From Gammaproteobacteria bacterium (lineage in GTDB: Bacteria > Pseudomonadota > Gammaproteobacteria > GCA-001735895), in the NCBI GenBank assembly GCA_050298595.1, contig JBNKUM010000100.1:1-64000 (forward strand): 64,000 bases of DNA, read 5' to 3'. A program made the position numbers and the translations under genes. The stretch's first letter is position 1, and every line of letters starts with the position of its first letter. Below, in pieces: positions 7,733-25,605 of the stretch. Below the pieces are notes generated by a model. It ran no database searches. It was not told the origin of the DNA and saw only the letters and a program-made list of their open reading frames with translations.

Positions 7733-8719
7733 ATGAATAATCAATTAATAGATCAATGCGGGCGACATATTAATTATCTGCGGCTTTCAGTGACAGATCG
7801 TTGTGATCTGCGTTGCAAATACTGTATGCCCAAAGGTTTCAGGGATTTTTCTGCACCTCAGGAGTGGTTGAATTTTGATGAGATAGAAAAAACGGTGTCA
7901 TTGTTTGCACAGGCTGGTATTGAGCATCTACGCATTACCGGGGGAGAACCACTGGTACGTGAAAACATCGATCAGCTCATTCAACGCCTCTCCATTATTC
8001 CAGGGATAAAGGATTTGTCTTTATCGACCAACGCGGTACGTCTTGAAAAATATGCCGAAAGATTGAAACAGGCGGGTGTGCAACGATTGAATGTCAGTCT
8101 CGATTCACTGGATGAACATCGCTATGCAGAGATCACTGGTGGTGGAAAATTAAGCAAGGTTTTAAATGGGCTGCAACAGGCGAAACAGTTGGGTCTGGGC
8201 CCGATCAAAATTAATTGTGTGTTAATGAAAGGTTTCAATGAAGATGAAATTGATCAAATGCTTGAATATTGTGCAAAGCATGGTTTCACCCTGAGGTTGA
8301 TTGAAACTATGCCTATTGGCGATACTGGACGCTCTGCTCAATCCCAATATATGAGTCTCAATATCATCAAGGATCAGCTAAGTCAAAAATACGATTTGAT
8401 CCCTGATCTTATGCCTGGGGCAGGGCCGGCACGCTATTTTCGTTTGCAGGGCAGTTCTACCAGGATTGGATTTATTACACCTATTTCTCAGCATTTTTGT
8501 GAAACCTGTAATCGTTTAAGGCTTTCCTGTGAAGGCGATATTTTTACCTGCCTGGGTGATGAAACACGTTATCCATTGGGGCAGTATCTACGTGCAGGGC
8601 AAAGTGATGCTCAGATGCTGGAGCATATCCATAAGGCGATTAATCTCAAGCCAGAGAAGCATGAATTTAAAAATGATCGACAGAGAGTTGTCCGCCTGAT
8701 GTCGATGACGGGTGGATAG
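7733..8719 (+). CDS. moaA: GTP 3',8-cyclase MoaA (radical SAM)
   Basis: YLRLSVTDRCDLRCKYC, ITGGEP, FCETCNRLR...C and C-terminal MSMTGG. Confidence 0.97.
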   Translation: MNNQLIDQCGRHINYLRLSVTDRCDLRCKYCMPKGFRDFSAPQEWLNFDEIEKTVSLFAQAGIEHLRITGGEPLVRENIDQLIQRLSIIPGIKDLSLSTNAVRLEKYAERLKQAGVQRLNVSLDSLDEHRYAEITGGGKLSKVLNGLQQAKQLGLGPIKINCVLMKGFNEDEIDQMLEYCAKHGFTLRLIETMPIGDTGRSAQSQYMSLNIIKDQLSQKYDLIPDLMPGAGPARYFRLQGSSTRIGFITPISQHFCETCNRLRLSCEGDIFTCLGDETRYPLGQYLRAGQSDAQMLEHIHKAINLKPEKHEFKNDRQRVVRLMSMTGG

Positions 8720-8830
8720 CTGAGTCCGTTAGCAAACACTAACGTGATGCTTGCACTGTCGTTTGTAGTTTCTCAAATTTGGTTGCCAGTGCTACCGTCA
8801 TTTTTTCTTAATAGAGAAAATGTCTCAGTT
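8718..8830 (+). ncRNA. Candidate structured RNA (four-way junction) in the moaA 3' region
   Basis: Closing stem 8718-8724/8824-8830 enclosing hairpins 8727-8744, 8753-8792 and 8799-8822; G-U pairs favour the + strand. Confidence 0.45.
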
Positions 8831-8862
8831 AACCGGGTGTTTCTCAACATCCGGTTTTTTTT
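8831..8862 (+). terminator. Rho-independent terminator
   Basis: AACCGGGTGTT-TCTC-AACATCCGGTT followed by a T run. Confidence 0.85.
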
Positions 8863-8928
8863 GAGTGAAACAAATGTGGGTTCCGTGATAATTTGAACTT
8901 GAATTAAGTGAGTAGAAGAGTATCAAAA

Positions 8929-9384
8929 ATGGCGCAATATAGCTTTGTAGAAGATCCGCGGGGTGGCGTAGGGATGGAAATAATCGCCAGGGATCATGAT
9001 GATATGTTTAATGCTGCGACTGCAGCCTTATGTCTTTACATGTGGGATCAGGACACTGTAGAGGAGCGTGAAGAGGTCGAGGTTTCATGGTATGGATTCG
9101 ATATACCAACGACGGTAGTGGGGCTGCTTTCTGAAATTCTGTTCCGGATGGATAATGATGGTTGGGTGTTTAAACGTTTTGTAACGCGCAGTATTGAAGA
9201 AGTTGATGATCTGGATGAGCGGCATAGGAAAAAACAGTTAAAAATTACAGGTACCGCCTATGGCGAAAAGTACCGAGCTGATAAACATATTCCACGTTTT
9301 CCTGTACAGGCAATATTATTGCCCAGGCTCAAGGTAAAAAAAGTTGAACAAGGGGTGCGCCTCTATTGCGTGCTGGATGCATGA
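8929..9384 (+). CDS. Archease-like protein with divergent signature motifs
   Basis: Colinear with the archease pattern (F.AA..AL, LL.E.LF..D..G..F, TAYGE...KH, terminal VLD); ATG 8929 preferred over GTG 8908. Confidence 0.7.
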   Translation: MAQYSFVEDPRGGVGMEIIARDHDDMFNAATAALCLYMWDQDTVEEREEVEVSWYGFDIPTTVVGLLSEILFRMDNDGWVFKRFVTRSIEEVDDLDERHRKKQLKITGTAYGEKYRADKHIPRFPVQAILLPRLKVKKVEQGVRLYCVLDA

Positions 9385-9394
9385 TTTTTATCGT

Positions 9395-9464
9395 GTTACT
9401 AAAAAGTAACGCTTCCAGGCATTTCCAGAGATTTTTTACCATTGCTCCGTTACTGATTGGTAAC
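9395..9464. promoter_or_regulatory. Putative enhancer (UAS) pair for a sigma54 activator
   Basis: GTTAC-TAAAAA-GTAAC at 9395-9410 and GTTAC-TGATTG-GTAAC at 9449-9464, the same motif as upstream of moaA. Confidence 0.7.
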
Positions 9465-9560
9465 CATGAATTCGTAATATCCACATGAATTGCGATGTAA
9501 TTATTTGCTAATAAATAATTAACCATAAAATACAGTCACTTAAGTTTGTTTTTTCTCCTT

Positions 9561-9576
9561 TGGCATAAGGGTTGCT
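9561..9576 (+). promoter_or_regulatory. Sigma54 -24/-12 promoter of the molybdoenzyme operon
   Basis: TGGCATAAGGGTTGCT with exact GG-N10-GC spacing. Confidence 0.8.
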
Positions 9577-9666
9577 TAGAGTAATCAAACTTCATTGTTT
9601 TCAATGGGGTTATTACATACGCACCGAAATATTTCGGTCGAATAAAAATCCTTAGGAGGAATTCTT

Positions 9667-10389
9667 ATGTCAGTTGGTCTCCAGGCTGAACCATCTTTAG
9701 GAGTACCGGGTAAAAAGCGCTGGGCCATGGTTATCGACCTACGTCGTTGTATAGGTTGTATGGCCTGTGTCTGCGCAGATAAGGCTGAATATGATGTCCC
9801 ACTTGGCGTGTGGCGCACCATGGTTAAAGTCAAAGATACCGGAACTTACCCTAATACCAAGCGTCATTTTATGCCGCGACTTTGTAATCATTGCGATAAT
9901 CCACCTTGTGTACGTAACTGCCCAACAGAGGCAACTTATAAACATGAAGATGGTTTTGTATTGCAAAGATATGATCGCTGTATCGCTTGCAGAACCTGTA
10001 TTGCTGCTTGCCCTTATAACGCACGTCATGTCCTTCCAAAAAACAGGGACAGAGTAAAAATTAGTGGCGTTATTGATAAGTGCACATTCTGTAATCATCG
10101 CGTTGAAAAGGGGCTTGCCCCTGCCTGTGTGCAGACCTGTCTAGGTCGTTCGAGAATTTTTGGTGACCTTAATGATCCGAAAAGTGAAGTGTCTCGTCTG
10201 GTTGCTCGTCACAAAACGGTCGTGTTAAAGCCTGACAAAGGTACCTCACCACAGGTTTATTATGTAAAGCCTGATCGAGCAATGACTGAGCAGGTATTCA
10301 GTGCCCCGAAATCTTATGCAGCGCGTGCTGATGAAGCAGCGTTCTATAAGCATAACCGTGGCAGTAAATTCTTTTCTGGCGTTCTATAG
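9667..10389 (+). CDS. Four-cluster 4Fe-4S electron transfer subunit (PsrB/NrfC/TtrB/ArrB family)
   Basis: CIGCMAC, CNHCDNPPC, CIACRTC and CTFC motifs; RBS AGGAGG. Confidence 0.95.
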   Translation: MSVGLQAEPSLGVPGKKRWAMVIDLRRCIGCMACVCADKAEYDVPLGVWRTMVKVKDTGTYPNTKRHFMPRLCNHCDNPPCVRNCPTEATYKHEDGFVLQRYDRCIACRTCIAACPYNARHVLPKNRDRVKISGVIDKCTFCNHRVEKGLAPACVQTCLGRSRIFGDLNDPKSEVSRLVARHKTVVLKPDKGTSPQVYYVKPDRAMTEQVFSAPKSYAARADEAAFYKHNRGSKFFSGVL

Positions 10390-10399
10390 GAGACATATC

Positions 10400-11287
10400 A
10401 TGTTTGAATACATGGACTACAACATCGCTCCTTGGGGGCACGAAATTGTCATTTACTTTTTTCTGATTGGTGCTGCAGCAATGACGTTTGTATATGCTGC
10501 TGCACCGGCGGTATTTGGTGATACGCTCGGTGGCGCAGCTAAGGCCATGGAGCCTTTCCAGAAAACGGGAATGATTATCTCATTGATATTGCTGCTTGTC
10601 TGTGCACCGCTACTGATCACTGATCTGGGTCAGCCGGGGCGCTTCCTGTACCCGATTATCCATTTTCACTGGACTTCGCCATTGTCCTGGGGTTCTTTGT
10701 TTCTACCACTGTTTGGTGCCTGTATCGTGGGTTACTACTTTGGTCTGCTAAAAGAGAATGCCGGCTTAATGCGCCTGACCGGTATTCTTGGGTCATTGCT
10801 GGCCTTATCTATGCCTTTATATACGGGGCTGGATTTGATGGTGAATCAGTCGCGTGAATTGTGGAGTAACCCAACAATACCTTTGCTGTTTGTTATTTTG
10901 TCGGTCAGTTCAGGTACCGCTGTGGTAGCAGTAACGCAAATGCTTCGAGGCGGAATAAATGAAAAGGTGGCAGAGTTTCTGCACCTGTTTTTATATATCT
11001 CGTTGTCTGTCACATTGGCACTATTTCTCGCTGAGTGGGTGGTGTTAAATTATGGATCAGGTGAAAAACAGCAGGCCTATGCCATCATCAATCAGCAGTT
11101 TTCTATGCAGTGGTGGGGCTTAACATTCTTTGTCGGAATTCTGATCCCTCTGGCGATGATCGCTGTTCCAAGAATTGGCCGTAATCCGATGGTGTTGACA
11201 CTTGCGTCTGTGCTGAGTCTGGTGGGTGCTTTTACCTTCAGAGAAGTATTGATCTACGCAGGTCAACTTACCATGATCAATTTCTAA
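10400..11287 (+). CDS. NrfD/PsrC family membrane anchor / quinol-interacting subunit
   Basis: WG..I..YFFL.G, DLGQP.RF, SPLSWG and YTG motifs; ~8 TM segments; ATG 10400 has RBS AGGAG. Confidence 0.92.
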   Translation: MFEYMDYNIAPWGHEIVIYFFLIGAAAMTFVYAAAPAVFGDTLGGAAKAMEPFQKTGMIISLILLLVCAPLLITDLGQPGRFLYPIIHFHWTSPLSWGSLFLPLFGACIVGYYFGLLKENAGLMRLTGILGSLLALSMPLYTGLDLMVNQSRELWSNPTIPLLFVILSVSSGTAVVAVTQMLRGGINEKVAEFLHLFLYISLSVTLALFLAEWVVLNYGSGEKQQAYAIINQQFSMQWWGLTFFVGILIPLAMIAVPRIGRNPMVLTLASVLSLVGAFTFREVLIYAGQLTMINF

Positions 11288-11299
11288 GGAGATATAATA

Positions 11300-13969
11300 A
11301 TGAACGAAACATTAAAATTTTCCAGACGCTCCTTCATGAAATTGGGTGGAGCGATTGGAGGGGCTGCTTCGGTGGTTACTTTAGGTAGCAGCCGCCTGGA
11401 AGCGATGGAACAGGATCTGGGCGGAAAAGACTTTTCGCCTACCACGGGTGCCGCTAGAACGGCGGTACCTTATACCTGCCTGGCCTGTAATATCGAAGAC
11501 GGTGGTGTGGCTTATGTAGAGAATGGTCGCATCGTTAAGCTTGAAGGTAATATGGATCATCCAAATACGCGCGGAAAACTGTGCGCCAAGGGTAATTCCG
11601 GTTATCTGCATGTGTACGACCCTGATCGTATCATGACGCCTCTATTACGCACCGGTAAGCGTGGAGAGGGTAAGTGGAAGCGTATCTCTTACGCTGAAGC
11701 GGCCACGATTCTGGCAGGTAAATTGCGGGAAGTGATTGATCGCTCTAATGAGCATGATGATCCGGCAATTCTGAATGAAATAGTGTTCAAATATGGTCGT
11801 GATAGAACGGGTGGTGCGGTTGGTCGATTTATGCACGCGCTTGGCTCCAATACAATTATCAATCATACAAATATCTGTGAATCTTCCAAAAAAGTTGGTC
11901 TTGAGCCTTCATGGGGACCAGATATTGAGTCATGCGACTGGGCGAATACTAAATACATACTGAACTTTGGTTCAAATGTACTTGAAACGGCTTATTTCAT
12001 GAACCCGAATGCGCAGCGCCTGGTTGATGGCGTGGTCGGTAACAAAGCCAAGCTGGTAAGCTTTGATGTGCGCATGTCGAATACATCAGGTTTTGCCGAT
12101 GAGGCTTTTTATCCATACCCTGGCACCGATGGTGCCATCGCCCTGGCCATGTGCCATGTGATTATGAATGAGGGGCTGTATGACGCGGATTTTATCCGTG
12201 ACTGGACCAATGTCAGTGTTGAACAGTTGATCGATCATCTGAAGCCGTATACGCCTGAGTATGCAGAAGATGAGTCTGGTATCCCGGCTAAGGATATACG
12301 TCGTATTGCTCGCGAATTTGCCACTACCAAGCCGGCAACAACATTCTCCTATCGTGGTCCTGCCAAGCACATTTGGGGTGCTTATCAGGAAGCCTCAATT
12401 CATATGATTAATGTGATCACGGGCAATGTTGAAAAGAAAGGTGGTTATTGTCTGCCACGTGGTATGGGCTGGCCTCAACCACAGCCTGAGCCACCCAAGG
12501 GTAAGGCTGCAAGTGTACTGGCTGCGCCACCACTATATCCATTAGCCTCGCATCATGTTTCAACGCATGCACCCTATATGATTAAAAAAGGTGAAGCCAG
12601 GGTATCGGTGTGGATGTCTTACTACGATAACCCGGTTTACACCTATCCTTCGAGTCATGTATGGGATGATCTGCTGCGTGATGAAACAACCATTCCGTTT
12701 TTCACATCATTCAGTCCCTATATGTCTGAAACAACCGAACTGGCCGATCTGATTATTCCGGATGTGACCTATCTTGAACGACATGATCCCGAGTCTATGC
12801 CTAGTGGATTATATCCCTGTCTATCCATTCGCCAGCCGGTCACCAAGCCATTGGCGGGTACACAGGAGTTCCGTCAAACGCTGATAGATGTGATGCAAAA
12901 GGTCGATCCAGATGGCTCTCTGGGGATGAAGAAATACTTTGCTTTCAATACGGTTGAAGACTGGATGAAAGCTCATTTTGATAATATCCCCGGCCTGAAA
13001 GAAGAAGGTGGCTGGAACCACATGAAGAAAAAAGGAGTTTGGCCTATCTACGGTGAAGTGGATAAGACTAGCGCCAAGCTGGTCGATAGAAATGGCAATG
13101 AAGTAGAGCCAGAGTATGGTCTGTATACCAAAGAATTGTCTGCGGCTGATATGTCAGGTGCCACAGTCGATAGTGAAGGTCTGATCATGAAAGATGGAAA
13201 AGTAATCGGAGTGAATGCCAACGGCAAAAACATGGTGGGTTTTGGAACACCTTCTCACCGGATTGAAATCTATAAAGAAAGCTTTAAGAAATATGGATTC
13301 AATCCTATGCCGGTTTATAAGCGACTGGAATCTCGTAACAAGAAGCCGGATGAACTGGTGCTCACTACCTATAAGGTGAATGTGCATACGCAAAGTCGAA
13401 CCGCTTCGCTGAAGTTTCTGGCCGAGCTGTACCATAAAAATCCAGCCTGGATTAACCCAAAAACAGCCAATTCTAGAGGTATTAAGGATGGTGATTTGAT
13501 CAGGGTGACTTCAACGCTGGGGCATATTGTGACTCGTGCTCATGTGACACAGGGTATCCATCCTGATGTGGTAGCGATTTCAACCGCCTGTGGTCATAAC
13601 GCCTATGGTCGCCTGGCCCAGCTGAAACAGAAACAGCAGGCTGCTGACTGGGCGCAAGGTGGTGATCCGGATATCACCAATAATGTCTGGTGGGATGATA
13701 AAGGGGTGCATCCGAATCCCATTATCAAGCTCGCCGTTGATCCTATTGGTGGTTCGCAGGGTTGGTACGATACTGTCGTTACCGTATCCAAAGCTCAAGC
13801 CGGAGATAAATATGGTGATACCCAGGCGAGTGTTGAGGAATCTATGAAGGATTATGAAGAGACACTACGTTATGCCTATAACGGTGATTTGCATCGTAAA
13901 CACCATCAGGAAGTGGATATAGACTGGGATAATTTACCACATCCAGCTATGTCATCTGGCGGTCATTAA
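11300..13969 (+). CDS. Periplasmic molybdopterin oxidoreductase catalytic subunit, DMSO-reductase family (Arr/Arx/Anr/Ttr-related; possibly AnrA-like)
   Basis: Tat signal SRRSFMK; N-terminal FeS motif C-x2-C-x3-D-x27-C; NHTNICE (candidate Mo-ligand Cys); PGTDGA; C-terminal bis-MGD binding domain. Confidence 0.92.
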   Translation: MNETLKFSRRSFMKLGGAIGGAASVVTLGSSRLEAMEQDLGGKDFSPTTGAARTAVPYTCLACNIEDGGVAYVENGRIVKLEGNMDHPNTRGKLCAKGNSGYLHVYDPDRIMTPLLRTGKRGEGKWKRISYAEAATILAGKLREVIDRSNEHDDPAILNEIVFKYGRDRTGGAVGRFMHALGSNTIINHTNICESSKKVGLEPSWGPDIESCDWANTKYILNFGSNVLETAYFMNPNAQRLVDGVVGNKAKLVSFDVRMSNTSGFADEAFYPYPGTDGAIALAMCHVIMNEGLYDADFIRDWTNVSVEQLIDHLKPYTPEYAEDESGIPAKDIRRIAREFATTKPATTFSYRGPAKHIWGAYQEASIHMINVITGNVEKKGGYCLPRGMGWPQPQPEPPKGKAASVLAAPPLYPLASHHVSTHAPYMIKKGEARVSVWMSYYDNPVYTYPSSHVWDDLLRDETTIPFFTSFSPYMSETTELADLIIPDVTYLERHDPESMPSGLYPCLSIRQPVTKPLAGTQEFRQTLIDVMQKVDPDGSLGMKKYFAFNTVEDWMKAHFDNIPGLKEEGGWNHMKKKGVWPIYGEVDKTSAKLVDRNGNEVEPEYGLYTKELSAADMSGATVDSEGLIMKDGKVIGVNANGKNMVGFGTPSHRIEIYKESFKKYGFNPMPVYKRLESRNKKPDELVLTTYKVNVHTQSRTASLKFLAELYHKNPAWINPKTANSRGIKDGDLIRVTSTLGHIVTRAHVTQGIHPDVVAISTACGHNAYGRLAQLKQKQQAADWAQGGDPDITNNVWWDDKGVHPNPIIKLAVDPIGGSQGWYDTVVTVSKAQAGDKYGDTQASVEESMKDYEETLRYAYNGDLHRKHHQEVDIDWDNLPHPAMSSGGH

Positions 13970-13976
13970 AACTGAT

Positions 13977-14022: not shown

Positions 14023-14793
14023 ATGCAAACAAATATAACAAATAGCACTGAAGCACAAAGTGGCAGCGAGCAGTCAATGATTAATCAGGCCTTACATAAT
14101 AGAGTGGAAAATGTACTGTCCTTGAGCGGTCTTTTTGGTTTTTTTAGTCGCTGTATTGAGCAGGAAGCGGATGCTGAATTTTTACATATGTTACGTAATG
14201 AATTGAGGCCCTCGATTGAGGAATCGGGACTTCAGTTTGATGAAAGTTTCTATACGGTACCAATAGACGAGTTAAAGGAGATACTGGCAGAAGAATTTAC
14301 CGGCTTATTTGTCGCGCCGGGCTGTGTCAGTCCCTACGCATCGGTTTTTGAAACCGGTTGTATGTTCAAGGAGCCAGCGGATAAAGCACTCAACGCTTAT
14401 CAGCAGGCTGGCTGGGATTATAAAAACGTCTACAGCGGTGAATTTCCGGATCATATAGGTACAATGCTGGGTTTTTATGGAATCCTGTGTGCTACCGAGG
14501 CAGACAGTCTTGATGCGGGTGATGTAGAGTCTGCAGACAGGATTAAGGCAGTTCGAGAATCATTTTTAGTTGAACAGTTGGGACGATGGGGGCCGGGGTG
14601 GTGTCATCTGGCTGCACAGGCCGCCAACCTGACTTTCTATAAACAGATTTTGACTATGGTTGAGCAAACATTATGGTCAGAATTGACGCAGATGGTTGAT
14701 CGACGTGAATTGAAGGCGCTGGCTGAACTGAATAAGCGCGAACCCAAGCGTATGGATTATGATGCCGACTTCAGAAAGGCATCAGGATTATGA
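14023..14793 (+). CDS. TorD/DmsD family molybdoenzyme maturation chaperone
   Basis: EFTGLF, PYASVF and EFPDHIG motifs; directly follows the catalytic subunit. Confidence 0.92.
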   Translation: MQTNITNSTEAQSGSEQSMINQALHNRVENVLSLSGLFGFFSRCIEQEADAEFLHMLRNELRPSIEESGLQFDESFYTVPIDELKEILAEEFTGLFVAPGCVSPYASVFETGCMFKEPADKALNAYQQAGWDYKNVYSGEFPDHIGTMLGFYGILCATEADSLDAGDVESADRIKAVRESFLVEQLGRWGPGWCHLAAQAANLTFYKQILTMVEQTLWSELTQMVDRRELKALAELNKREPKRMDYDADFRKASGL

Positions 14794-17587: not shown

Positions 17588-17858
17588 AAAGGCTGCGCTA
17601 CCTGTATTGATTGTGTTGCTGATATTGAGTGGGATTTACTGGTGGTGGCAACAGCCTGAAACGCCACAACAGATGTTTGAGGTTCGATGTGCAAGTTGCC
17701 ATGAATTGCAGATTGAGAAGTTATGTGAATTTCCGAGTGAATTACGTGCTGACATCGTAGATGTGATGCGTAGGGATCATGGTGCTGCTGAAGTAATCAG
17801 TGAGCATGAAGCAAGATTGATACAACAATACTTTAGGGGAGAATTCCGATGTCGGTGA
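17556..17858 (+). CDS. Small membrane-anchored monoheme cytochrome c
   Basis: Hydrophobic anchor followed by CASCH; start codon uncertain. Confidence 0.7.
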   Translation: MKSGWRCYLNKKAALPVLIVLLILSGIYWWWQQPETPQQMFEVRCASCHELQIEKLCEFPSELRADIVDVMRRDHGAAEVISEHEARLIQQYFRGEFRCR

Positions 17859-18913
17859 ATTTTGATCAATACCAAAGTCTCGAAGAAGATATTTTACAGT
17901 GTCTGAGTGAAATATATGCCGGTGAAAATGGCCCCGATATTGTCTCTTCAGGTCAGATTTATGATGTGGTTGTGACCGCAGGTGCAGCGAGAATTTTACT
18001 GGACCCTCAGCATATTCCTAATGACTCTGAGGAGATGCTGGCAGAGGCTATTACGCCTCTGGTTGAGTCCATTCCTGGCATTGATCGAGTGATTGTTAAG
18101 CCGCGTCCAAAGTCCATCGCGCAACGCGAATCCATACCGGGTATAAGGCATGTCGTTGGTATACATAGTGGCAAGGGCGGTGTAGGCAAATCGACGGTAA
18201 CTGCTAATCTGGCCGTTGCATTAGCTCGTCAGGGTTTGTCGGTCGGACTGCTGGATGCTGATGTGTATGGTCCTTCGGCACCCACATTGATGGGTATCAA
18301 GGGTCGTGCTGAAACTTCTGAAGCAGCAGAGAAGATCGAGCCGATTATGGCTCACGGCGTAAAAGTGATGTCGTTGGGCCTGTTGCTACCTGAGGATCAG
18401 GCGCTTATCTGGCGGGGGTCTTTGATCGATGAAGGATTGCCGCAATTATTCAATGATATTGCATGGGGAGAGCTGGATATTCTGCTGGTGGATTTGCCCC
18501 CGGGAACTTCCGATGTGCATCTATCGGTAGCGCAGAGTGTGGCCCTGTCAGGTGTCATCACGGTGACCGCTCCGGGGCAGGTCTCCATTGATGACGTGCG
18601 CAGGGGGTTGGAAATGTTCGCAGATATTGCTGTGCCAAGCCTCGGGCTGGTGGAAAATATGTCTGGCGTTTTGTGCAAAAAATGTCATCACAAAGGGGAT
18701 TTGTTTGGCCAGGGTGGTGCGCAGGAATTATCACAGATGACGGGCATACCGCTGTTGACGACATTGCCTTTTATGCCAGTGGTAGCGTTGGGCTCAGATA
18801 ATGGCTTACCGGTAGCTACAGAAGATAGCGGCGTGGGAGCTGATTTTTATGAACTGGCCAGTTTGCTGTCATCAAAACTGCAGCTCAATCAAATGAGAGA
18901 GGTGTTGCAATGA
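17849..18913 (+). CDS. Mrp/ApbC/NBP35 family Fe-S cluster carrier ATPase (copy 1)
   Basis: SGKGGVGKST, DADVYGPS, DLPPGT and ENMS..CKKC. Confidence 0.93.
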   Translation: MSVNFDQYQSLEEDILQCLSEIYAGENGPDIVSSGQIYDVVVTAGAARILLDPQHIPNDSEEMLAEAITPLVESIPGIDRVIVKPRPKSIAQRESIPGIRHVVGIHSGKGGVGKSTVTANLAVALARQGLSVGLLDADVYGPSAPTLMGIKGRAETSEAAEKIEPIMAHGVKVMSLGLLLPEDQALIWRGSLIDEGLPQLFNDIAWGELDILLVDLPPGTSDVHLSVAQSVALSGVITVTAPGQVSIDDVRRGLEMFADIAVPSLGLVENMSGVLCKKCHHKGDLFGQGGAQELSQMTGIPLLTTLPFMPVVALGSDNGLPVATEDSGVGADFYELASLLSSKLQLNQMREVLQ

Positions 18914-19842
18914 AAGATTTTGCAGAATTCCCCGTTCAGATAGAGGTCAACAACACTATCCAGACTTCTGAAGACCCCTGGTATGCGCAACCTCAGGAGC
19001 CTCTTGAGGGTATTGCCAATGTCGTGTTGGTCGCAAGTGGTAAAGGGGGGGTAGGTAAGTCTACGGTTACTGTGAATCTCGCCTGTGCGCTGGCTCAGGC
19101 AGGCAAGCGCGTAGGTATACTGGATGCCGATCTGTATGGTCCGTCGATCACACGTATGATGGATACCGACGCTGAGCTACCCGTGAACGAAGATGGCTTT
19201 ACGATGCCGATTGAGAAGCATGGTGTGCACACCGTTTCGGTGGGTAATGTGATGCCACCAGAAGCAGCACTAGTCTGGAAGGGCCCACTGGTAACCCAGA
19301 CTTTATTACAAATGTTTAGAGATATTGCCTGGCCGGAGCTTGATATATTGCTTGTCGATCTACCGCCGGGTACGGGTGATGTGCCGTTAACGATTGTTGA
19401 GCAGATTCCTGTTACGGGCTGTGTGCTGGTGACTACGCCGCAAAAGTTATCGGTGGTCGATGCATCAAGAGGTATCTCGATGTTTCATGATCTGGATATC
19501 CCGGTTTTTGGGGTGGTGGAAAATATGAATCAGTATGTCTGCCCTTGCTGTGGAGAAGTACAGGAGTTATTCCCAGATGGTGCAGCACAGCTGCTAGCAG
19601 AACGAAAACATGTCAAATATCTGGGTGGGATCCCGCTCGACCCAAATGGCCAGCAGGCTGCCGATCAGGGAGCGCCGCTAGTATTATCAAGCCCGGACTG
19701 TATGGCAGCTCAGGCTTTTATAGCTCTCGCGAATGAGGTCGATGCCGCGATCAATAAAGAACGGGCATCTCAAATTTATAATGCCGATCCACAGGTGCAG
19801 GCAAACCATGAAATTTTCTGGGAAAACTTATTAGATGATTAA
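18910..19842 (+). CDS. Mrp/ApbC/NBP35 family Fe-S cluster carrier ATPase (copy 2)
   Basis: SGKGGVGKST, DADLYGPS, DLPPGTGD, TTPQ and ENM...CPCC. Confidence 0.93.
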   Translation: MKDFAEFPVQIEVNNTIQTSEDPWYAQPQEPLEGIANVVLVASGKGGVGKSTVTVNLACALAQAGKRVGILDADLYGPSITRMMDTDAELPVNEDGFTMPIEKHGVHTVSVGNVMPPEAALVWKGPLVTQTLLQMFRDIAWPELDILLVDLPPGTGDVPLTIVEQIPVTGCVLVTTPQKLSVVDASRGISMFHDLDIPVFGVVENMNQYVCPCCGEVQELFPDGAAQLLAERKHVKYLGGIPLDPNGQQAADQGAPLVLSSPDCMAAQAFIALANEVDAAINKERASQIYNADPQVQANHEIFWENLLDD

Positions 19843-19851
19843 GGTGATCGT

Positions 19852-20604
19852 ATGAATAAATCAGCAAAACTTCTTGTGCAACATCAGCCGGGCGCTGCCG
19901 ATGAGGAGCTGGAATATACATGGATGGAGGGTGCAGATGCTTTCATCATAGACCCCTGTGACTGCGATGTTGAAACCGTGAATGCGATTCCAGTAGATGA
20001 GATGATGATAATATCCAGTGATCCTGGAAATACGCTTCATTTACAACAGGATAAAACATGCCGCTGGGTTTGCGATGAGGGTTTGCAGAAGACTGCAGAA
20101 TTACGTGATGAGTGGAAAGAATCAGAGTGGATTCCAAAATTAACGGTTTTTCGCCCTCATACCAGTTATCGATTCTCTGGTCCTGCCATCGGTGAAGGGT
20201 TTTCATTCTACATTCCTGATACCTCTACGATCAGAGGCTGGCGCGTCACCGATGGGGATATTTTATTGTCTGAAGCCGTACAGAAAGCCAGAGCATTGGG
20301 ATTTACTTCAGTCTGGTTGCATTCCCTTGATGCGGAAAATGAAGCCAAAGGGCTGGAGCTGGAAATGCTGGATAGAACTGAAGGGAGTGAGTTGAATGTC
20401 TGGTTGTCTGGGGGGATATCTAACCCTCAGCATCTAAAAAATATGGTTCGTGTAGGAGGAGCCAGCGCAGCCGTGGTAGACAGTGAATTTGCCAGGACGC
20501 ATGGAATAGAGGCATTAAACGAGGCTCTGCTTCCTGTCGCAGCGGAACCCGTTACTGCCGAAGTTAATTTTGTCTGTGGCCAGGGCTGTAGCCCTGCTGT
20601 ATAG
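19852..20604 (+). CDS. Divergent HisA/HisF-like TIM-barrel protein
   Basis: C-terminal half matches the HisA/HisF pattern (G...V.L.S.D......G.EL, SGGI...HL, GA.AAVV); N-terminal half not recognisable. Confidence 0.65.
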   Translation: MNKSAKLLVQHQPGAADEELEYTWMEGADAFIIDPCDCDVETVNAIPVDEMMIISSDPGNTLHLQQDKTCRWVCDEGLQKTAELRDEWKESEWIPKLTVFRPHTSYRFSGPAIGEGFSFYIPDTSTIRGWRVTDGDILLSEAVQKARALGFTSVWLHSLDAENEAKGLELEMLDRTEGSELNVWLSGGISNPQHLKNMVRVGGASAAVVDSEFARTHGIEALNEALLPVAAEPVTAEVNFVCGQGCSPAV

Positions 20605-20607
20605 CTT

Positions 20608-21075
20608 GTGACTAAATTGTGGGTAGTGATACTGCTGGGCGTTTTATATAGTGGCTATCTATTGGCGCAAGGCTATACTGAAATTTCAGCTGCGGAGTTA
20701 TTGAGCTGGCAGCAAAACGGTAAGTCAATGATGTTGCTGGATGTGCGCGGTCGCGATGCTTACTCAAAAGCAACACTTTCGGGTGCTATCAATGGTGGGT
20801 TAGACCCAAAAGGTTTTCTACCGGGCAGCAATCGCGCCCCGGTGGTTTTAATTATTCCCAAAAGCGCTGAAAAGGGTTTCACCAGGTCCTGGGTAGATCG
20901 ATTAAAAAATGCTCATCTGGATGTTTACGTGTTCAGTGCTGGTATCAATGAATGGATCGCGCAGGGTGGTCAGGTCTATGAACCTGAGACTTATTATTCG
21001 AAACCGGGTACGGTTCCCTTTCGAATCCCAAAAGGACTTTGTGAAGAAGGAGAACCGGCGCAGATATTTGAATGA
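20608..21075 (+). CDS. Exported rhodanese-like domain protein
   Basis: Signal peptide, LLDVR...Y....L.GA.N and GI.EW...G; no Cys in the expected active-site loop. Confidence 0.75.
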   Translation: MTKLWVVILLGVLYSGYLLAQGYTEISAAELLSWQQNGKSMMLLDVRGRDAYSKATLSGAINGGLDPKGFLPGSNRAPVVLIIPKSAEKGFTRSWVDRLKNAHLDVYVFSAGINEWIAQGGQVYEPETYYSKPGTVPFRIPKGLCEEGEPAQIFE

Positions 21076-21932
21076 TACGACTCTTATTGGCCAGGTTTTT
21101 AGCGGTTTGTGTTATTTTGCTTCCTGTCAAAGTGATATCAGATATTAATGTCCCGCTATGTGAGAGCTGTCATTCCGAGCAGACTGAATCCTATCAACGC
21201 AGTAAAATGGCTATCGCTGCGCAAACCGTTACTTTTATTAATGAGTGGAATCAAAAAGGTCAACCTGATCGCTGTTTTAATTGCCATTCACCCTCTTTAA
21301 CTCAAGGGGTAGTATGTACTGACTGCCATCAGGGCGCTAATCATCCCTTTAATTTAGCAACGGATATCAATATTTGCAGCCGCTGCCATGATGCACCCGG
21401 TGAAATAACGCTAAGAAGCTACTATCAGTCACCTTCATCTAGAAAAGGTGAGCGCTGTAGTGCCTGTCATTTGAATATCAAAGTATCAGGGCATGAGTTT
21501 TTAGGCCCATCAACACCTGGTTTTTTAAAGGGGGTTGCCAGACTGGACATTGCCTTAAGAATAGAAGGCGATGACACAATAGCAATTGTGAGCATTAATC
21601 ATAATGCAGGTCATGCTGTACCTGGAGGCACTACGGGAAGATCAGTCTGGTTGTTAGCTGATCAGTTTAATGATGCTGGAGAAGTTATGAGGCTATCAGA
21701 AACACGTTTTGGTTGGCAGGATCATCAGCAGCAAGGGTGGAAAGATAACACTTTGCCTGCTGGTTGTAGTACTGTGGTTGAAATACCTGTAGATTCTGAT
21801 CCGAAATTAGATAAATTACGTGTTAAACTGATTTACCGGTTTGAACCGGGTTTATTACAATCAAAAGATACAAAACAATTCACTCTAGATGAACTCATCT
21901 ATCAACTAGAGGGACGTGGTGCATCACGATGA
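21072..21932 (+). CDS. Periplasmic pentaheme cytochrome c
   Basis: Signal peptide plus CESCH, CFNCH, CTDCH, CSRCH and CSACH; AGHAVPGG motif. Confidence 0.88.
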   Translation: MIRLLLARFLAVCVILLPVKVISDINVPLCESCHSEQTESYQRSKMAIAAQTVTFINEWNQKGQPDRCFNCHSPSLTQGVVCTDCHQGANHPFNLATDINICSRCHDAPGEITLRSYYQSPSSRKGERCSACHLNIKVSGHEFLGPSTPGFLKGVARLDIALRIEGDDTIAIVSINHNAGHAVPGGTTGRSVWLLADQFNDAGEVMRLSETRFGWQDHQQQGWKDNTLPAGCSTVVEIPVDSDPKLDKLRVKLIYRFEPGLLQSKDTKQFTLDELIYQLEGRGASR

Positions 21933-21959
21933 ATGCAAAAAACTGGGTGAGATTTTAAA

Positions 21960-22841
21960 ATGAAAAAAGCTGTAGTTTTATTCACGCAGTTTTCAATCAC
22001 TCTTTTAATGAGCTTATTCATATGGCTCTATTCGGCTAGCTCTTCACTAGCTATAAGTGATACGAAAACATATAAAATTGGATTAACACCTGTATTCCTT
22101 ACAGATAGAACCTCCTTTATTCATGATTGGCAAAACTATCTTTCTAAAAAGTTGAATGCATCGGTAAAATTTGTTCAGCGTCAAACCTATCAGGAAGTGA
22201 CAGATTTGTTGATGTCAGGTGATCTGGATGCGGCGTGGTTATGTGGGTTTCCCTATGTGGTTAATAAAAGTGAATTTAAACTGCTGTCTGTACCCACTTA
22301 TAAAGGAGAGCCTCTTTATCAATCCTATTTGATTGTTCCTGCAACCGATAAAGACACAAAGAATATTGAAGACCTGAAAAATAAGGTGTTTGCTTACTCT
22401 GACCCTAATTCAAATTCAGGGTATCTGGTTCCCCAGGTGGATATGATTAAAGCAGGTATCAATCCCAGAACTTATTTTAATAAAACTTTCTTTGCATGGT
22501 CACATCAGGATGTCGTAAGGGCGGTCGCTGATGGAGTTGCCCATGCAGGTGCTGTAGATGGGTATGTCTGGGATACGATAGAAAGCATTGACCCACGATT
22601 AGCCAGTCAAACCAGAGTGGTTACCCGATCTCAGAAATTTGGTTTCCCACCATTTGTCGTAAAGCGAGGTATTTCCAGTACGAGTGAGTCAGCTCTTAGG
22701 CAGTCATTACTCAATATGAATAATGATAAGGATGGGCAGGCCTTGTTGAAAAGATTGAATATCGATAGTTTCATCATGGGTGATGATGAACTTTATGAAG
22801 GCATATCAAATTTCGTTAATATTCTTAAGGAAAATAGATGA
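21960..22841 (+). CDS. Periplasmic oxyanion-binding sensor, PhnD-like (AioX/ArxX/AnrX family)
   Basis: GLTPVF, AWLCGFPY, Y.SYLIV, DP.SNSG, H..V..AVA.G and VDGYVW motifs. Confidence 0.85.
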   Translation: MKKAVVLFTQFSITLLMSLFIWLYSASSSLAISDTKTYKIGLTPVFLTDRTSFIHDWQNYLSKKLNASVKFVQRQTYQEVTDLLMSGDLDAAWLCGFPYVVNKSEFKLLSVPTYKGEPLYQSYLIVPATDKDTKNIEDLKNKVFAYSDPNSNSGYLVPQVDMIKAGINPRTYFNKTFFAWSHQDVVRAVADGVAHAGAVDGYVWDTIESIDPRLASQTRVVTRSQKFGFPPFVVKRGISSTSESALRQSLLNMNNDKDGQALLKRLNIDSFIMGDDELYEGISNFVNILKENR

Positions 22842-24277
22842 ATATTGGTGATATCAGTTATCGGGTCAAAGTACCAATATTGCTAACTGGAGTTATTTTA
22901 CTTACCGTCACTGCGGTAGCTTTCGCGCTTAGCTGGCGTGCTTATGAAGATTTAAGAGTAGAAATGTTTAGAAATGCGGTTGAGATTGGTAGTGTCTTAT
23001 CCAATAGTTTACCAGATGCCATGTTGCGTGATGACTTGTGGAGCGCTTATCGCATGGTAAGAGCAGCCGAGGGTTGGGCGGATGAGGCATCTAATCGCCT
23101 GTTAATAGTGCTCGATATGAATGGTCTTATTTATGTTTCAAATAAGCCCAGAGAGCTTTCAGCTACGACGCCCTTAAGAACACATGGAGCTGAATTTGCA
23201 CGCATTGAGTCAACGCTGTTATCTCTGAGTGGCGAGCTTAAACCACGCTCTTATGAGCATGATGGAGATGTCAATATCTATGTTATTTTGCCCATGTTGA
23301 GTGATGGTGTGGCCGTAGGAAATATTGTTATTGGATACGATAAAAAATTATTCTGGCCTCGGCTGATTGATATTATTGAAAGGGTGGTTATTTCTGCTTT
23401 TATTGTGGCAATAGTCTTATTGCCATTTGGCTGGTTCTTAGGTAATAGAATAGTCTCACCATTGAGTAAGCTAAATCAATGTATGTCAAAAATTGGACGA
23501 GTTAAACCCGAAGAAATTGTGTGTGATTTAGAATTGGGGGACGATGAGATAGGGCAGTTGGGTGAAAGTTTTAAAAGAATGTTAGGGGAGCTAGATGAAA
23601 AAGAAAAAATGGAAGTTAATATGCTGGCATCTGAGCGCTTGGCGGCGATTGGTCGGTTAACAGCGGGTGTTGCACATGAGATTAACAATCCGCTAGGTGG
23701 CATGTTAAACGCACTGAATACTTTTCGTAAATATAGCAATACCGATGAATTAGGACACGATACTTTTAAGTTGATTGAACGAGGTTTGGAGCAAATTAGA
23801 GATACGGTTTCTGCGCTTTTAGTTGAGGCTAATCCTAGAAGTCACGACCTGATGCCGGCAGATATTGAAGATGTACATACGTTGTTATTACCGGTCCTGC
23901 GTGAGAATGATGTGTCATTGGTCTTGATCAATGAACTGAAAGAATCTGTAAATTTACCCTCTACGCCTATTCGTCAAATATTAATGAACCTGGCTTTAAA
24001 CGCAATTCAGGCTTCTCACAAAGATAAAGAGGTTCAATGTATGGTGACATCTACAAACAATACTTTACGTCTGATTGTTGAAAATGAAGGGCCAGAAATT
24101 CCACGCGAAAAAATGCTGCATTTATTCGAACCTTTTTTGCAGGATGCAACCGGTAATGGATTAGGATTGTGGGTGACCTATCAACTGGTGTTGCAGTTGG
24201 ATGGAATTATTGAAGTGAAATCCGTAGCGGGTAAAACAAAGTTTGATGTCTCGTTTACAACCAGGAAAATGGCATGA
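22838..24277 (+). CDS. Membrane sensor histidine kinase (AioS/ArxS-like)
   Basis: Two TM segments, HAMP domain, AHEINNPL H-box, N-box and GLGL G-box. Confidence 0.93.
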   Translation: MNIGDISYRVKVPILLTGVILLTVTAVAFALSWRAYEDLRVEMFRNAVEIGSVLSNSLPDAMLRDDLWSAYRMVRAAEGWADEASNRLLIVLDMNGLIYVSNKPRELSATTPLRTHGAEFARIESTLLSLSGELKPRSYEHDGDVNIYVILPMLSDGVAVGNIVIGYDKKLFWPRLIDIIERVVISAFIVAIVLLPFGWFLGNRIVSPLSKLNQCMSKIGRVKPEEIVCDLELGDDEIGQLGESFKRMLGELDEKEKMEVNMLASERLAAIGRLTAGVAHEINNPLGGMLNALNTFRKYSNTDELGHDTFKLIERGLEQIRDTVSALLVEANPRSHDLMPADIEDVHTLLLPVLRENDVSLVLINELKESVNLPSTPIRQILMNLALNAIQASHKDKEVQCMVTSTNNTLRLIVENEGPEIPREKMLHLFEPFLQDATGNGLGLWVTYQLVLQLDGIIEVKSVAGKTKFDVSFTTRKMA

Positions 24278-25605
24278 ATAACTCATCTAGATTATGTCTT
24301 GTAGAAGATGATGAAATTATGCGTATCTCGCTTTGCCAGAGATTTAATTTAGAATGTATTCCCTGTGATTGTTATGACACGGCAGGTGCAGCCTTATTGG
24401 CACTTAAAGAAAATCATTACGATCTGCTCATTAGTGATATCAAACTCCCTGACATGAGTGGAGAGGCGCTCTACAAATCATTGCTGGATTCTGATCAAAT
24501 ACCGCCACCTACCATATTTATTACGGGCTATGGCACCATAGATCAGGCTGTGGAGTTATTAAAGCTTGGTGCGAGTGACTATATCAGTAAACCATTTGAT
24601 CTTGATGATTTGTTATTCAAGTTGAGAGAGCTATGTCCTTCCCTTTTTAACACTGAAGGATCAGACGATACAGAATTGGGCGTTTCATCACAGATGAGAG
24701 GCGTGGTGGCAACTCTAAACCGTCTCGCAGAACATGACGTAGATGTGTTGATAACAGGTGAGTCCGGAGTTGGTAAAGAGTATGCAGCAAAGTATTTCGC
24801 AGATAAATACAGAAGCAGTTCTGAGGAACCTTTTATTGCCATTAATTGCGCCGCGTTACCCGAAGATCTTTTAGAGGCCGAATTATTCGGACATGAAAAA
24901 GGTGCGTTCACTGGTGCAGTAAAGCAGCGCAGGGGTGTTTTTGAGCAAGCGCATGGTGGAGTGCTTTTCCTTGATGAGATAGGCGAAACCACACCACGCA
25001 TGCAAGCTAAATTATTACGCTGTATACAGGAGAGGGTTATTCAACGTATTGGTGGCGAGGATTTGATATCGGTTAACGTTAGACTGATTTACGCTACCAA
25101 CCAGGATCTATTCGCAATGGTAGATCAGGGAACATTCCGTGAAGATTTATTTTACAGAATTAATGTGGCGCATGTTGTCATTCCCCCATTAAGGGAAAGA
25201 AAGGCAGATATCATTTGGCTGGCGCATAAAGTTGTGGAGGAGCATGGGAAGAAATATCAGCAACGTAAGATAATATTGCCAATAACTGAGCGATTTCTGG
25301 AAAAGCAACTGTGGCCTGGCAATTTGAGGGAGTTAAAAAATACCCTCGAAAGGGTCTGTATATTAAGTAATCAGGAGATTATTGGGCCTAAAGATTTTTA
25401 CCCACCAGATCCAGTGGTTAATGAATCTATGGGAAGTACCACATTGAAAGATTCTATGGATCAGTATGAGATGAATCTATTACAGGAAACTCTGGAGCAT
25501 CATGAGTGGAGAATTATTGAATCGGCGGATAGCCTGGGCATAAGTCGTAAAAGTTTGTGGGAGAAAATGAAGCGTTATGGGATTCCTCAATCTAAACAGG
25601 ATTAG
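24274..25605 (+). CDS. Sigma54-dependent response regulator (AioR/ArxR-like, NtrC family)
   Basis: Receiver domain, GESGVGKE, GAFTGA, FLDEIGE, WPGNLREL and Fis-type HTH. Confidence 0.95.
   Translation: MNNSSRLCLVEDDEIMRISLCQRFNLECIPCDCYDTAGAALLALKENHYDLLISDIKLPDMSGEALYKSLLDSDQIPPPTIFITGYGTIDQAVELLKLGASDYISKPFDLDDLLFKLRELCPSLFNTEGSDDTELGVSSQMRGVVATLNRLAEHDVDVLITGESGVGKEYAAKYFADKYRSSSEEPFIAINCAALPEDLLEAELFGHEKGAFTGAVKQRRGVFEQAHGGVLFLDEIGETTPRMQAKLLRCIQERVIQRIGGEDLISVNVRLIYATNQDLFAMVDQGTFREDLFYRINVAHVVIPPLRERKADIIWLAHKVVEEHGKKYQQRKIILPITERFLEKQLWPGNLRELKNTLERVCILSNQEIIGPKDFYPPDPVVNESMGSTTLKDSMDQYEMNLLQETLEHHEWRIIESADSLGISRKSLWEKMKRYGIPQSKQD

Follow-up and report, generated by a model that had tools for sequence, protein, structure and literature searches.

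What do sulfur-oxidizing bacteria gain from a gene island that places a molybdoenzyme of a lineage with no characterized member beside an arsenite-type sensor? The question is raised by a 64,000-nucleotide stretch of gammaproteobacterial contig JBNKUM010000100.1 (the window), in which 18 co-oriented genes span positions 7733-25605. Open reading frame (ORF) listing combined with Pfam and NCBIfam scans gave the order moaA, archease gene, B-C-A-D, nine accessory genes and X-S-R. In it, sulfur-oxidizing bacteria probably harbor an arsenic (or antimony) redox system that has so far escaped notice. We see about an even chance that it encodes an arsenite-inducible respiratory-chain enzyme, most likely an arsenite, alternatively an antimonite, oxidase. 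Gene content, conservation, sensor type, promoter architecture and phylogenetic position are established by the analysis presented here; substrate and reaction direction we infer.

An earlier note on this DNA, made from the letters alone, had described a co-oriented block with moaA, the subunits B-C-A-D and an X-S-R trio, and each of these genes was recovered on the plus strand where that note had placed it. The block is real, but its tally of 17 genes, eight of them accessory, falls short: 18 genes are present, nine of them accessory (D to X), the overlooked one being a small ORF (17484-17858) with one membrane helix and one CXXCH motif. Genome scanning with the catalytic subunit A returned 79 loci, to which later scans added more, and 160 loci with a long A match were kept once repeated contigs had been removed. 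Based on the identity of their A to window A, these loci fall into Tier 1 (at least 70%, n = 41), Tier 2 (49-65%, n = 79) and Tier 3 (~30-45%, n = 40, B-C-A only). In the two conserved forms of the cluster, A shares 71-100% (Tier 1) and 55-58% (Tier 2) identity with window A. Many loci end at contig edges, and presence counts are lower bounds. The island genes are as follows.

7733-8719, plus strand: moaA, GTP 3',8-cyclase, the second, island-borne copy (TIGR02666 370.5 bits, cut-off 284)
8908-9384, plus strand: archease-like protein (PF01951, 1.4e-19); true start probably the ATG at 8929
9667-10389, plus strand: B, four-cluster (4x[4Fe-4S]) electron-transfer subunit (PF13247)
10301-11287, plus strand: C, NrfD/PsrC-type membrane quinone/quinol subunit (PF03916, 2.6e-40); true start probably an internal Met near 10400
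11300-13969, plus strand: A, catalytic subunit of 889 amino acids (aa), exported by twin-arginine translocation (TAT) and carrying molybdenum-bis(pyranopterin guanine dinucleotide) (Mo-bisPGD; MopB family), with Fe4S4, Molybdopterin and Molydop_binding domains
14023-14793, plus strand: D, TorD/NarJ-family chaperone for A (PF02613, 9e-19)
14790-15932, plus strand: GT4-family glycosyltransferase, Tier 1 only (Pfam)
16009-16422, plus strand: methylglyoxal-synthase-like (MGS-like) protein, Tier 1 only (NF003559 100 bits, cut-off 84)
16424-17587, plus strand: ArxB2-like polyferredoxin, 387 aa, with an internal RRSF motif (alignment to ArxB2)
17484-17858, plus strand: small membrane-anchored mono-heme cytochrome c (CASCH, from sequence); true start probably inside the ORF
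17849-18913, plus strand: Mrp/NBP35-type Fe-S carrier ATPase with N-terminal FeS_assembly_P, Tier 1 only (PF10609 8.5e-85, PF01883)
18910-19842, plus strand: second Mrp/NBP35-type ATPase, Tier 1 only (PF10609, 8.2e-90)
19852-20604, plus strand: HisA/HisF-related TIM-barrel protein, common to Tiers 1 and 2 (PF00977, 1.3e-6)
20608-21075, plus strand: periplasmic rhodanese-like protein lacking the catalytic Cys, common to Tiers 1 and 2 (Pfam, sequence)
21072-21932, plus strand: periplasmic penta-heme cytochrome c, Tier 1 only (Pfam, CXXCH count)
21960-22841, plus strand: X, AioX/ArxX-type periplasmic arsenite-sensor protein, PhnD-like (match to AioX structure 6esk)
22838-24277, plus strand: S, HAMP/HisKA/HATPase sensor kinase (Pfam)
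24274-25605, plus strand: R, activator with receiver, sigma-54 AAA+ and Fis-type helix-turn-helix domains (PF00158, 7.7e-64)

The sensor X carries the strongest link to arsenic. Its matches were led by AioX of strain NT-26 (6esk, E 7e-66), followed by ArrX (1e-38) and PhnD/PtxB (1e-15 or weaker), and it is 39-46% identical to plasmid-encoded AioX, ArxX and Tier-2 X proteins. Excerpts of a published account of AioX describe a pocket of Y88, C106, Y131, S161, S163, H192 and D210, a hydrophobic loop (residues 53-61) that shuts on arsenite in AioX and ArxX, and a shorter, more polar loop in ArrX; in calorimetry with ten anions, AioX and ArxX bound arsenite alone (PMC5908839). Alignment of X revealed that all seven AioX pocket residues are retained (7/7) and that its signaling loop, GLTPVFL, is identical to the AioX loop. 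Other Tier-1 and Tier-2 X proteins conform to G[LVI]T[PA]V[FIMLV][LVI] at this position.

A contrast sample of 401 genomes was drawn from the phylum to which L108, a Thermodesulfobacteriota metagenome-assembled genome, belongs; 46 of the 401 carry an X-like gene (E <=1e-25). Among 20 regions fetched (L200-L219, genomes G425 to G660), X adjoins a Ttr-like A of ~1075 aa in eight, where its gene, accompanied by those of a long kinase and a sigma-54 regulator, precedes the molybdoenzyme gene; one further region holds a Tier-2-type A, one a 933-aa A (L210), and the other 10 have no such gene within reach. A named relative of the ~1075-aa enzyme, at 55% identity, is found in Anaeromyxobacter sp. PSR-1 (L289), presumably the strain with which the 2020 work of Muramatsu and colleagues is concerned. 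That work (Muramatsu et al. 2020) is cited for Ttr-like As(V) reductases in an excerpt of PMC12949373.

The nine contrast X proteins (the eight linked to Ttr-like enzymes and that of L210) carry a polar AVAAM[IT]SPxET instead of the hydrophobic loop, and Thr at position 163. In the X tree, which leaves out the Thauera row L062 (wrong ORF), these nine rows split from the 16 AioX, ArxX, Tier-1 and Tier-2 rows with 98% support (Shimodaira-Hasegawa approximate likelihood-ratio test, SH-aLRT). Within the latter group, AioX and ArxX are interleaved with the Tier-1 and Tier-2 X proteins.

The control regions of the island point in the same direction, and a pattern search resolved the following elements.

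7542-7557, plus strand: palindrome GTTACTGAATGGTAAC, putative R binding site, 145 nt 5' of the moaA sigma-54 promoter
7687-7702, plus strand: sigma-54-type promoter TGGCGCGAATATTGCT, 31 nt 5' of the moaA start codon
8831-8856, plus strand: terminator-like hairpin of 11 base pairs and T-run after moaA, tail TTTTTTGAGT
9395-9464, plus strand: palindromes GTTACTAAAAAGTAAC (9395) and GTTACTGATTGGTAAC (9449), putative tandem upstream activating sites of the B promoter
9561-9576, plus strand: sigma-54-type promoter TGGCATAAGGGTTGCT, 91 nt 5' of the B start codon

The 64 kb contain three perfect copies of GTTAC-N6-GTAAC against an expectation of 0.04, a count that none of 100 shuffles reached, and these copies lie 112-166 nt 5' of the moaA and B promoters. 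A relaxed form was found within 600 nt 5' of B in 34/37 Tier-1, 43/70 Tier-2 and 0/32 Tier-3 loci; a strict sigma-54 pattern picked up the promoter 5' of B in just 6/37 Tier-1 and 16/70 Tier-2 loci. Azoarcus KH32C has two copies of the palindrome and, 5' of B, a promoter, TGGCGCGAATGTTGC, near-identical to the moaA promoter of the island. A palindrome of the same type lies between aioB and aioX in Hydrogenophaga sp. BPS33 and in the arx control region of Sulfuricella, and a different palindrome in strain NT-26 and Cereibacter. According to an excerpt of Li et al. 2013, 12/12 aioBA operons with aioXSR have two palindromes 100-200 nt upstream together with a -24/-12 element (PMC3834237). The hairpin after moaA indicates that the island is not a single transcription unit but is split into two or three at least. 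In sum, the Cys106 pocket, hydrophobic loop, HAMP kinase, sigma-54 activator, and sigma-54 promoter with palindromes that mark an Arx/Aio-type X-S-R system are all present.

The polyferredoxin provides a further connection to Arx. It aligns with ArxB2 of Sulfuricella skB26 at 25% identity over 385 aa (E 4e-24), full-length and collinear, and its internal RRx[FL] motif, retained in 31/35 Tier-1 and 48/63 Tier-2 copies, has an RRxF counterpart in Sulfuricella ArxB2. The arxB2 gene is specific to arx clusters, with no described homolog in aio or arr clusters (PMC6549141).

Family models place the catalytic subunit A in none of the characterized groups. The NCBIfam scores were 367 bits for PhsA (NF012032, cut-off 694), 179.4 for ArrA (NF041714, cut-off 1600), 109.5 for TtrA (NF011567, cut-off 1750) and 30 for AioA (TIGR02693, cut-off 359). 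A sequence search of the Protein Data Bank (PDB) returned Thermus PsrA (2vpw, 198 bits) and Shewanella ArrA (141 bits) as the closest solved structures. B behaves similarly, TtrB being its best model (210 bits, cut-off 416), followed by DsrO (198) and ArrB (187), all below their own cut-offs. Against 1.8 billion cluster representatives, the nearest relative of A was 48% identical among the matches listed, and ten related representatives that we looked up bore generic names only.

We reconstructed two phylogenies of A, a FastTree of 146 rows and a quick IQ-TREE of 41 rows. Of the 150 representatives listed, the 123 that reach 650 aa entered the FastTree, along with samples of Tiers 1 and 2, PhsA from a plasmid, two ArxA and two ArrA-type sequences. 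The ArrA-type rows are genome matches (L082, L083) that lie below the family cut-off and carry the RGRY motif, and the trees were built without named PsrA, SrrA, SrdA, TtrA or AnrA and without a biochemically characterized ArrA. Both trees recover Tier 1 as one clade (100%). Tier 1, Tier 2, one Cys-bearing representative and a Cys-less group form a single clade (IQ-TREE 100%, FastTree 99%). In IQ-TREE, the clade holding window A (22 rows, 100%) is separate from the Arr/Arx-containing clade (10 rows, 100%), as it is in FastTree; the Tier-1/2 clade falls within a larger clade (100%), apart from the PhsA-containing (94%) and Arr/Arx-containing (100%) ones, the branching order of the three being unresolved in IQ-TREE.

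The active site of A has its own signature. Both motifs quoted by the earlier note are present, as FKYGRDRTGG and INHTNICESSKK. Window A reads KYGRDR (YGRDRTGG) where the ArrA-type rows have RGRYS and both ArxA sequences YGRGWGA; the (R/K)GRY motif of ArrA is seen in structure 6cz7 as well. The combined signature K[YW]GR[DN]R[ST]GG and [NGH]HT[NSD][IV]CESSKK was found, in a fixed search window, in 62/72 parsed Tier-1 and Tier-2 A proteins; the other 10 were missed, we think, due to over-long N-terminal ORF calls. The FS0 motif of window A is C60-x2-C63-x3-D67-x27-C95. Its C-x2-C-x3-D pattern recurs in 70/72 Tier-1 and Tier-2 A proteins (the remaining two gave no pattern match), an Asp replacing the Cys of PhsA, ArxA and ArrA-type sequences. 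Cys192, within NHTNICESSKK, is the putative Mo ligand. Around it, H-T-x-x-C-x4-K of window A aligns with H-S-x-x-C-x4-K of ArrA, in which the flanking His and Lys presumably bind arsenate; Thermus PsrA lacks that His and Lys. The earlier note's view that A is neither ArrA nor ArxA is thus borne out by the low ArrA score, by two trees and by the absence of RGRY and GRGWG, and A also lies outside the sampled characterized clades (Arr/Arx, PhsA), in a well-supported clade of its own.

The synteny survey that the earlier note had called for revealed this gene order again in related gamma- and alphaproteobacterial loci, and the arrangement of the island is therefore not a product of chance. Tier-1 hosts comprise Sedimenticolaceae (Sedimenticola selenatireducens, S. 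hydrogenitrophicus), Ca. Thiodiazotropha, Allochromatium, Thiocystis, Rhodobacteraceae, Rhodospirillales and Kiloniellaceae, and their conserved order is B-C-A-D-GT4-MGS-polyferredoxin-small cytochrome-Mrp-Mrp-HisF-rhodanese-cytochrome-X-S(-R), with the archease gene kept 5' of B in some loci. GT4 was matched in 34/41 and the Mrp pair in 33/41 Tier-1 loci; those without them stop at a contig edge first, except L014, which has no GT4 match. Tier-2 hosts are mostly Betaproteobacteria (Rhodoferax, Polaromonas, Dechloromonas, Thauera, Sulfuricella, Gallionella, Sideroxydans); the tier also occurs in Aromatoleum and Azoarcus, and Azoarcus sp. KH32C carries its cluster on plasmid pAZKH. The Tier-2 layout is a divergent R-S-X followed by B-C-A-D, DUF309-like, HisF-like, rhodanese-like and polyferredoxin genes and one more small gene. 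GT4, MGS, Mrp and cytochrome genes were matched in 0/38 Tier-2 loci. X is present in 33/41 Tier-1, 61/79 Tier-2 and 0/40 Tier-3 loci, and carriers are mostly sulfur- or iron-oxidizing lithotrophs and phototrophs.

Several variants of this layout were observed. An ArxA gene adjoins a Tier-2-type cluster in L187 (18661-20508, minus strand) and L135 (1610-4060). Six loci (L109, L110, L113, L048, L024, L027) have two X-S-R sets side by side, adjoining the B-C-A-D operon. A deltaproteobacterial variant, L121 (4888-15021), reads S-R-small gene-B-A-D-ArxB2-like-c554-like cytochrome-NapC/NirT and lacks X and the NrfD-type C subunit; this exchange of C for a c554-like cytochrome and NapC/NirT shows that the electron connection of the cluster is modular. 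The nearest relatives of the Tier-1 and Tier-2 enzymes are Tier-3 B-C-A operons, found in Thioploca, Marithrix, Magnetococcales and Zetaproteobacteria (e.g., L089-L092, L095, L096, L105, L112, L114, L118; P0122, P0124, P0128-P0130), without D, X-S-R or the HisF/rhodanese partners. Aligned Tier-3 A representatives lack the Mo-ligand Cys, and these operons may encode non-catalytic, Qrc/ACIII-like quinone modules.

The accessory proteins are conserved at the level of individual motifs. The small mono-heme cytochrome gene is present in 34 Tier-1 loci and retains CXXCH in 33/34, and all 22 Tier-1 copies of the penta-heme cytochrome (22/22) have five CXXCH motifs. A C-terminal IP-x3-C-[EQ] motif marks the rhodanese-like protein in 22/27 Tier-1 and 52/58 Tier-2 copies. 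The MGS-like protein scores 86 bits to Thermus MGS with the motif changes GGD to GGE and HEPD to DEPD, at positions that we take to be catalytic in methylglyoxal synthase; judged by these changes, its activity may differ from that of methylglyoxal synthase. The GT4 protein had no PDB sequence match and the HisF-like protein marginal ones only, and ESM Atlas searches returned generic family names for both. The host encodes its other MoaA on contig C56 (43% identical to the island copy) and its housekeeping Mrp on contig C86. The literature searched held no description of the Tier-1 accessory gene set, in agreement with the earlier note, and no functional study of the Tier-1/Tier-2 clade.

Arsenic resistance genes (arsC, arsA, arsD or acr3) lie within ~10 kb of 4/41 Tier-1, 13/79 Tier-2 and 1/40 Tier-3 loci. 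In Azoarcus KH32C, the regulator gene of the cluster borders directly on a full ars operon, made up of a helix-turn-helix (ArsR-like) gene and then arsC, arsD, arsA and acr3. The host genome of the window, 98.6% complete, has a single copy of the island and a DsrA above the family cut-off; it contained no AioA over the cut-off, no NarG and no Arr/Arx-type match.

To our knowledge, every characterized enzyme under a sensor of the Aio/Arx kind acts on arsenic. Regulation here is of this kind by sensor phylogeny, by the ligand pocket with its loop, by the class of regulator and by the DNA site, and together with the ArxB2 partner it therefore points to an arsenite-induced arsenic or antimony redox enzyme. 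The metalloid link proposed by the earlier note finds support in the same features and in the neighboring ars genes. The oxidase direction is suggested by the oxidase-type sensor and by lithotrophic and phototrophic hosts, and for these reasons that note's term "respiratory", taken in the sense of a reductase, is not favored here.

In the proposed mechanism, X would bind As(III), or possibly Sb(III), in the periplasm, and kinase S would relay the signal to R, the sigma-54 activator. Acting on the GTTAC-N6-GTAAC sites, R would fire two sigma-54 promoters, one for moaA and one for the B-to-R operon. The product would be a TAT-exported Mo-bisPGD subunit A, with Cys192 as Mo ligand, docked to ferredoxin B and the NrfD-type quinone subunit C; cofactor maturation would be served by MoaA, D, the two Mrp ATPases and perhaps archease. 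A would convert arsenite to arsenate, with antimonite as an alternative substrate, and electrons would pass via B to the quinone pool and/or to the mono-heme and penta-heme cytochromes c of the island. The sulfur-oxidizing host would gain an extra electron donor as well as detoxification. Two parts of the island stand outside this scheme: the ArxB2-like, HisF-like and Cys-motif rhodanese-like proteins are a conserved module whose role it does not explain, and the Tier-1-only GT4 and MGS-like genes are not accounted for by it.

Several observations weigh against an arsenite oxidase. The lineage of A is a well-supported, widespread clade with no characterized member, and its substrate and direction are our inference from sequence. 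Among the Tier-1 and Tier-2 loci, 103/120 have no neighboring ars genes, and the host genome gave no match for Acr3, ArsA or thioredoxin-type ArsC with the queries used. The arx genes beside Tier-2-type clusters in L187 and L135 could mean that the two enzymes have different substrates. A is closer overall to PhsA/PsrA than to ArrA (367 versus 179 bits; 198 versus 141 bits), and the Lys at +5 from the Mo-ligand Cys is common to A and ArrA-type reductases and absent from ArxA. Finally, Kambara and colleagues are said to have described in 2024 an anrXSR that controls a reductase and responds to Sb(III), a precedent by which the X-S-R trio alone does not fix the direction of the reaction.

One alternative is an Anr- or Arr-like respiratory reductase, in which electrons would run from quinol through C and B to A, antimonate or arsenate would be reduced in the periplasm, and X-S-R would sense the reduced product or metalloids generally. 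We consider this unlikely. The shared Lys and the analogy with anrXSRBAD, whose anrA is reportedly induced by Sb(III), argue for it, as does Sedimenticola selenatireducens, a carrier known as an oxyanion respirer. The NapC/NirT-type quinol dehydrogenase that L121 has instead of C also fits, arsenate-respiring Shewanella using CymA. Against this, the loop and tree position of X are those of oxidase-linked AioX and ArxX, not of the sampled reductase-linked X proteins; lithotrophy is obligate or typical for many carriers (Gallionella, Sideroxydans, Ferrigenium, Sulfuricella, Thiodiazotropha); and in betaproteobacterial carriers, whose only quinone is ubiquinone, the driving force for reducing arsenate would be small.

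A Psr/Phs/Ttr/Srr-type enzyme acting on sulfur, selenium or thio-arsenic compounds, with a recruited AioX-like sensor and a rhodanese-like protein handling sulfane sulfur, appears quite improbable; thiosulfate, tetrathionate, polysulfide, selenite and thioarsenate are examples of its possible substrates. PhsA and Thermus PsrA are the best family and structure matches of A, TtrB is the top model of B, the hosts oxidize sulfur, and the periplasmic rhodanese-like partner is reminiscent of Sud of Wolinella; the B-C-A order is also that of ttr, as an excerpt of PMC2500031 has it. However, the family scores fall far below their cut-offs (PhsA 367/694 bits, TtrA 109/1750 bits), A lies outside the PhsA clade, the rhodanese-like protein lacks its catalytic Cys, and the relatives without X-S-R (Tier 3) also lack the Mo-ligand Cys. 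More doubtful still is an enzyme dedicated to anaerobic antimonite oxidation, for which arsenite would be only a weak inducer or substrate. The arx neighbors in L187 and L135, which suggest a function non-redundant with arsenite oxidation, and an active-site motif unlike those of Arr and Arx would suit it, but X is interleaved with AioX and ArxX in the tree and the neighboring resistance genes are generic ars genes.

Two established arsenite oxidase systems served for comparison. The Arx references were Sulfuricella denitrificans skB26 plasmid pSCD and a Cereibacter azotoformans ORIO plasmid (arxXSR and arxB2ABCD). Like Arx, the island has an X-S-R of the same orthologous group with a sigma-54-dependent R, an ArxB2-type polyferredoxin, a TorD chaperone, an NrfD anchor and an adjacent moaA; its A is TAT-exported and Cys-ligated, and ars genes occur near such loci. 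Unlike Arx, it has an A that shares only ~28-30% identity with ArxA and branches outside the Arr/Arx clade, with YGRDR and an Asp for the third FS0 Cys where ArxA has GRGWG; its order is B-C-A-D with the ArxB2-like gene downstream rather than B2-A-B-C-D, and Tier 1 adds GT4, MGS-like, two Mrp ATPase, two cytochrome c and archease genes. The Aio references with aioXSR were plasmids of strain NT-26 and Hydrogenophaga sp. BPS33. Here the likeness lies in X (41-43% identical to AioX, with the same pocket and loop), in the sigma-54 promoter with tandem palindromes, that of Hydrogenophaga being the same GTTAC-N6-GTAAC, and in a cluster-encoded c-type cytochrome. In contrast, AioA belongs to a distant MopB lineage with a Rieske partner, whereas the island has no Rieske gene and anchors its enzyme to the membrane by NrfD.

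Among reductases, the anrXSRBAD cluster of Geobacter sp. SVR reportedly encodes the antimonate reductase Anr and shares with the island an X-S-R, molybdoenzyme B-A-D genes and a response to a trivalent metalloid. It is said to lack a C subunit and accessory genes, its order X-S-R-B-A-D differing from B-C-A-D, nine genes and X-S-R. No AnrA, Geobacter or Desulfuribacillus locus was among the loci returned by four genome-contig scans and two protein searches. Psr/Phs (E. coli plasmid PhsA; Thermus PsrA, 2vpw) gave the best overall sequence matches to A, and Psr has the same three-subunit architecture with an NrfD-type anchor. Yet they form a separate clade with the order A-B-C (phsABC), PsrA lacks the His and Lys around the Mo-ligand Cys, and the phs locus examined has no X-S-R. 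Ttr/Srd and the Ttr-like arsenate reductases share the B-C-A order, and the ~1075-aa Ttr-like enzymes of Desulfobacterota are likewise preceded by an X-like sensor and a sigma-54 regulator. Their A, in contrast, is only 22-28% identical to the queries used and far off in the tree, and their X proteins are a separate, reductase-linked group with the polar loop.

A published counterpart is "Unk", an uncharacterized clade that Duval and colleagues named in 2008 (BMC Evol Biol 8:206), for which the excerpted text gives the B-C-A order and divergent branches in Azoarcus EbN1 and Dechloromonas (PMC2500031). As in the island, its molybdoenzyme is related to Arr, Psr/Phs and Ttr and carries a TAT signal on A; neither a link to X-S-R nor the Tier-1 accessory block appears in the excerpted description. 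Matched by description rather than by sequence, Unk probably includes Tier 2. The earlier note's proposal of an uncharacterized oxidoreductase stands as far as the clade has no characterized member, but the lineage had probably been named already, as Unk. Two other candidates were considered and set aside: the NaoABC antimonite oxidase is NapA-like (PMC11521347), and the SoeABC-like candidate of Thioalkalivibrio is a different, cytoplasmic enzyme (PMC6620896).

Tiers 1 and 2 may together represent a third, independently recruited arsenite oxidase lineage after Aio and Arx, controlled by the arsenite sensor that those two use, a proposal to which we give somewhat less than an even chance. The hallmarks of such a lineage would be an Asp-ligated FS0 and the signature K[YW]GR[DN]R...HT[NS][IV]CESSKK, and it would be widespread in sulfur- and iron-oxidizing Proteobacteria, among them lucinid symbionts (Thiodiazotropha) and purple sulfur bacteria. 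Tier 1 would have its own cofactor-maturation and cytochrome module, with GT4, MGS-like and HisF-like proteins hinting at chemistry new to arsenic metabolism.

Aio and Arx are at present the only systems credited with anaerobic and light-driven arsenite oxidation, and their genes are all that environmental surveys count. Should this lineage oxidize As(III) or Sb(III), arsenic cycling would be under-counted in sulfidic sediments, groundwater and chemosynthetic symbioses, and a third oxidase would escape any survey that relies on aioA and arxA. Members of the family often carry the annotation "thiosulfate/polysulfide reductase", which misdirects sulfur-cycle inventories. Function is directly testable, since several carriers are in culture: Sedimenticola selenatireducens, S. 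hydrogenitrophicus and Allochromatium humboldtianum for Tier 1, and Azoarcus sp. KH32C, Thauera aminoaromatica S2, Hydrogenophilus thermoluteolus and Sulfuricystis spp. for Tier 2. The invariant FS0 Asp and the conserved HisF-like, rhodanese-like and ArxB2-like trio pose biochemical puzzles of their own.

The surroundings of the island in the window are largely housekeeping, with gltBD, zwf, gnd and glycogen phosphorylase as flanking genes. Its 3' border is a PAS-GGDEF gene on the minus strand (25774-28578), and tandem paralogous TPR proteins of 477 aa each (3501-4934 and 5340-6773) are encoded just 5' of it. Farther along, 57063-62342 encodes a protein of 1759 aa that combines DUF3686 ("ATPase involved in DNA repair"), DUF7902 and an AAA domain, and a neighboring 655-aa ORF (48535-50502) had no Pfam match.

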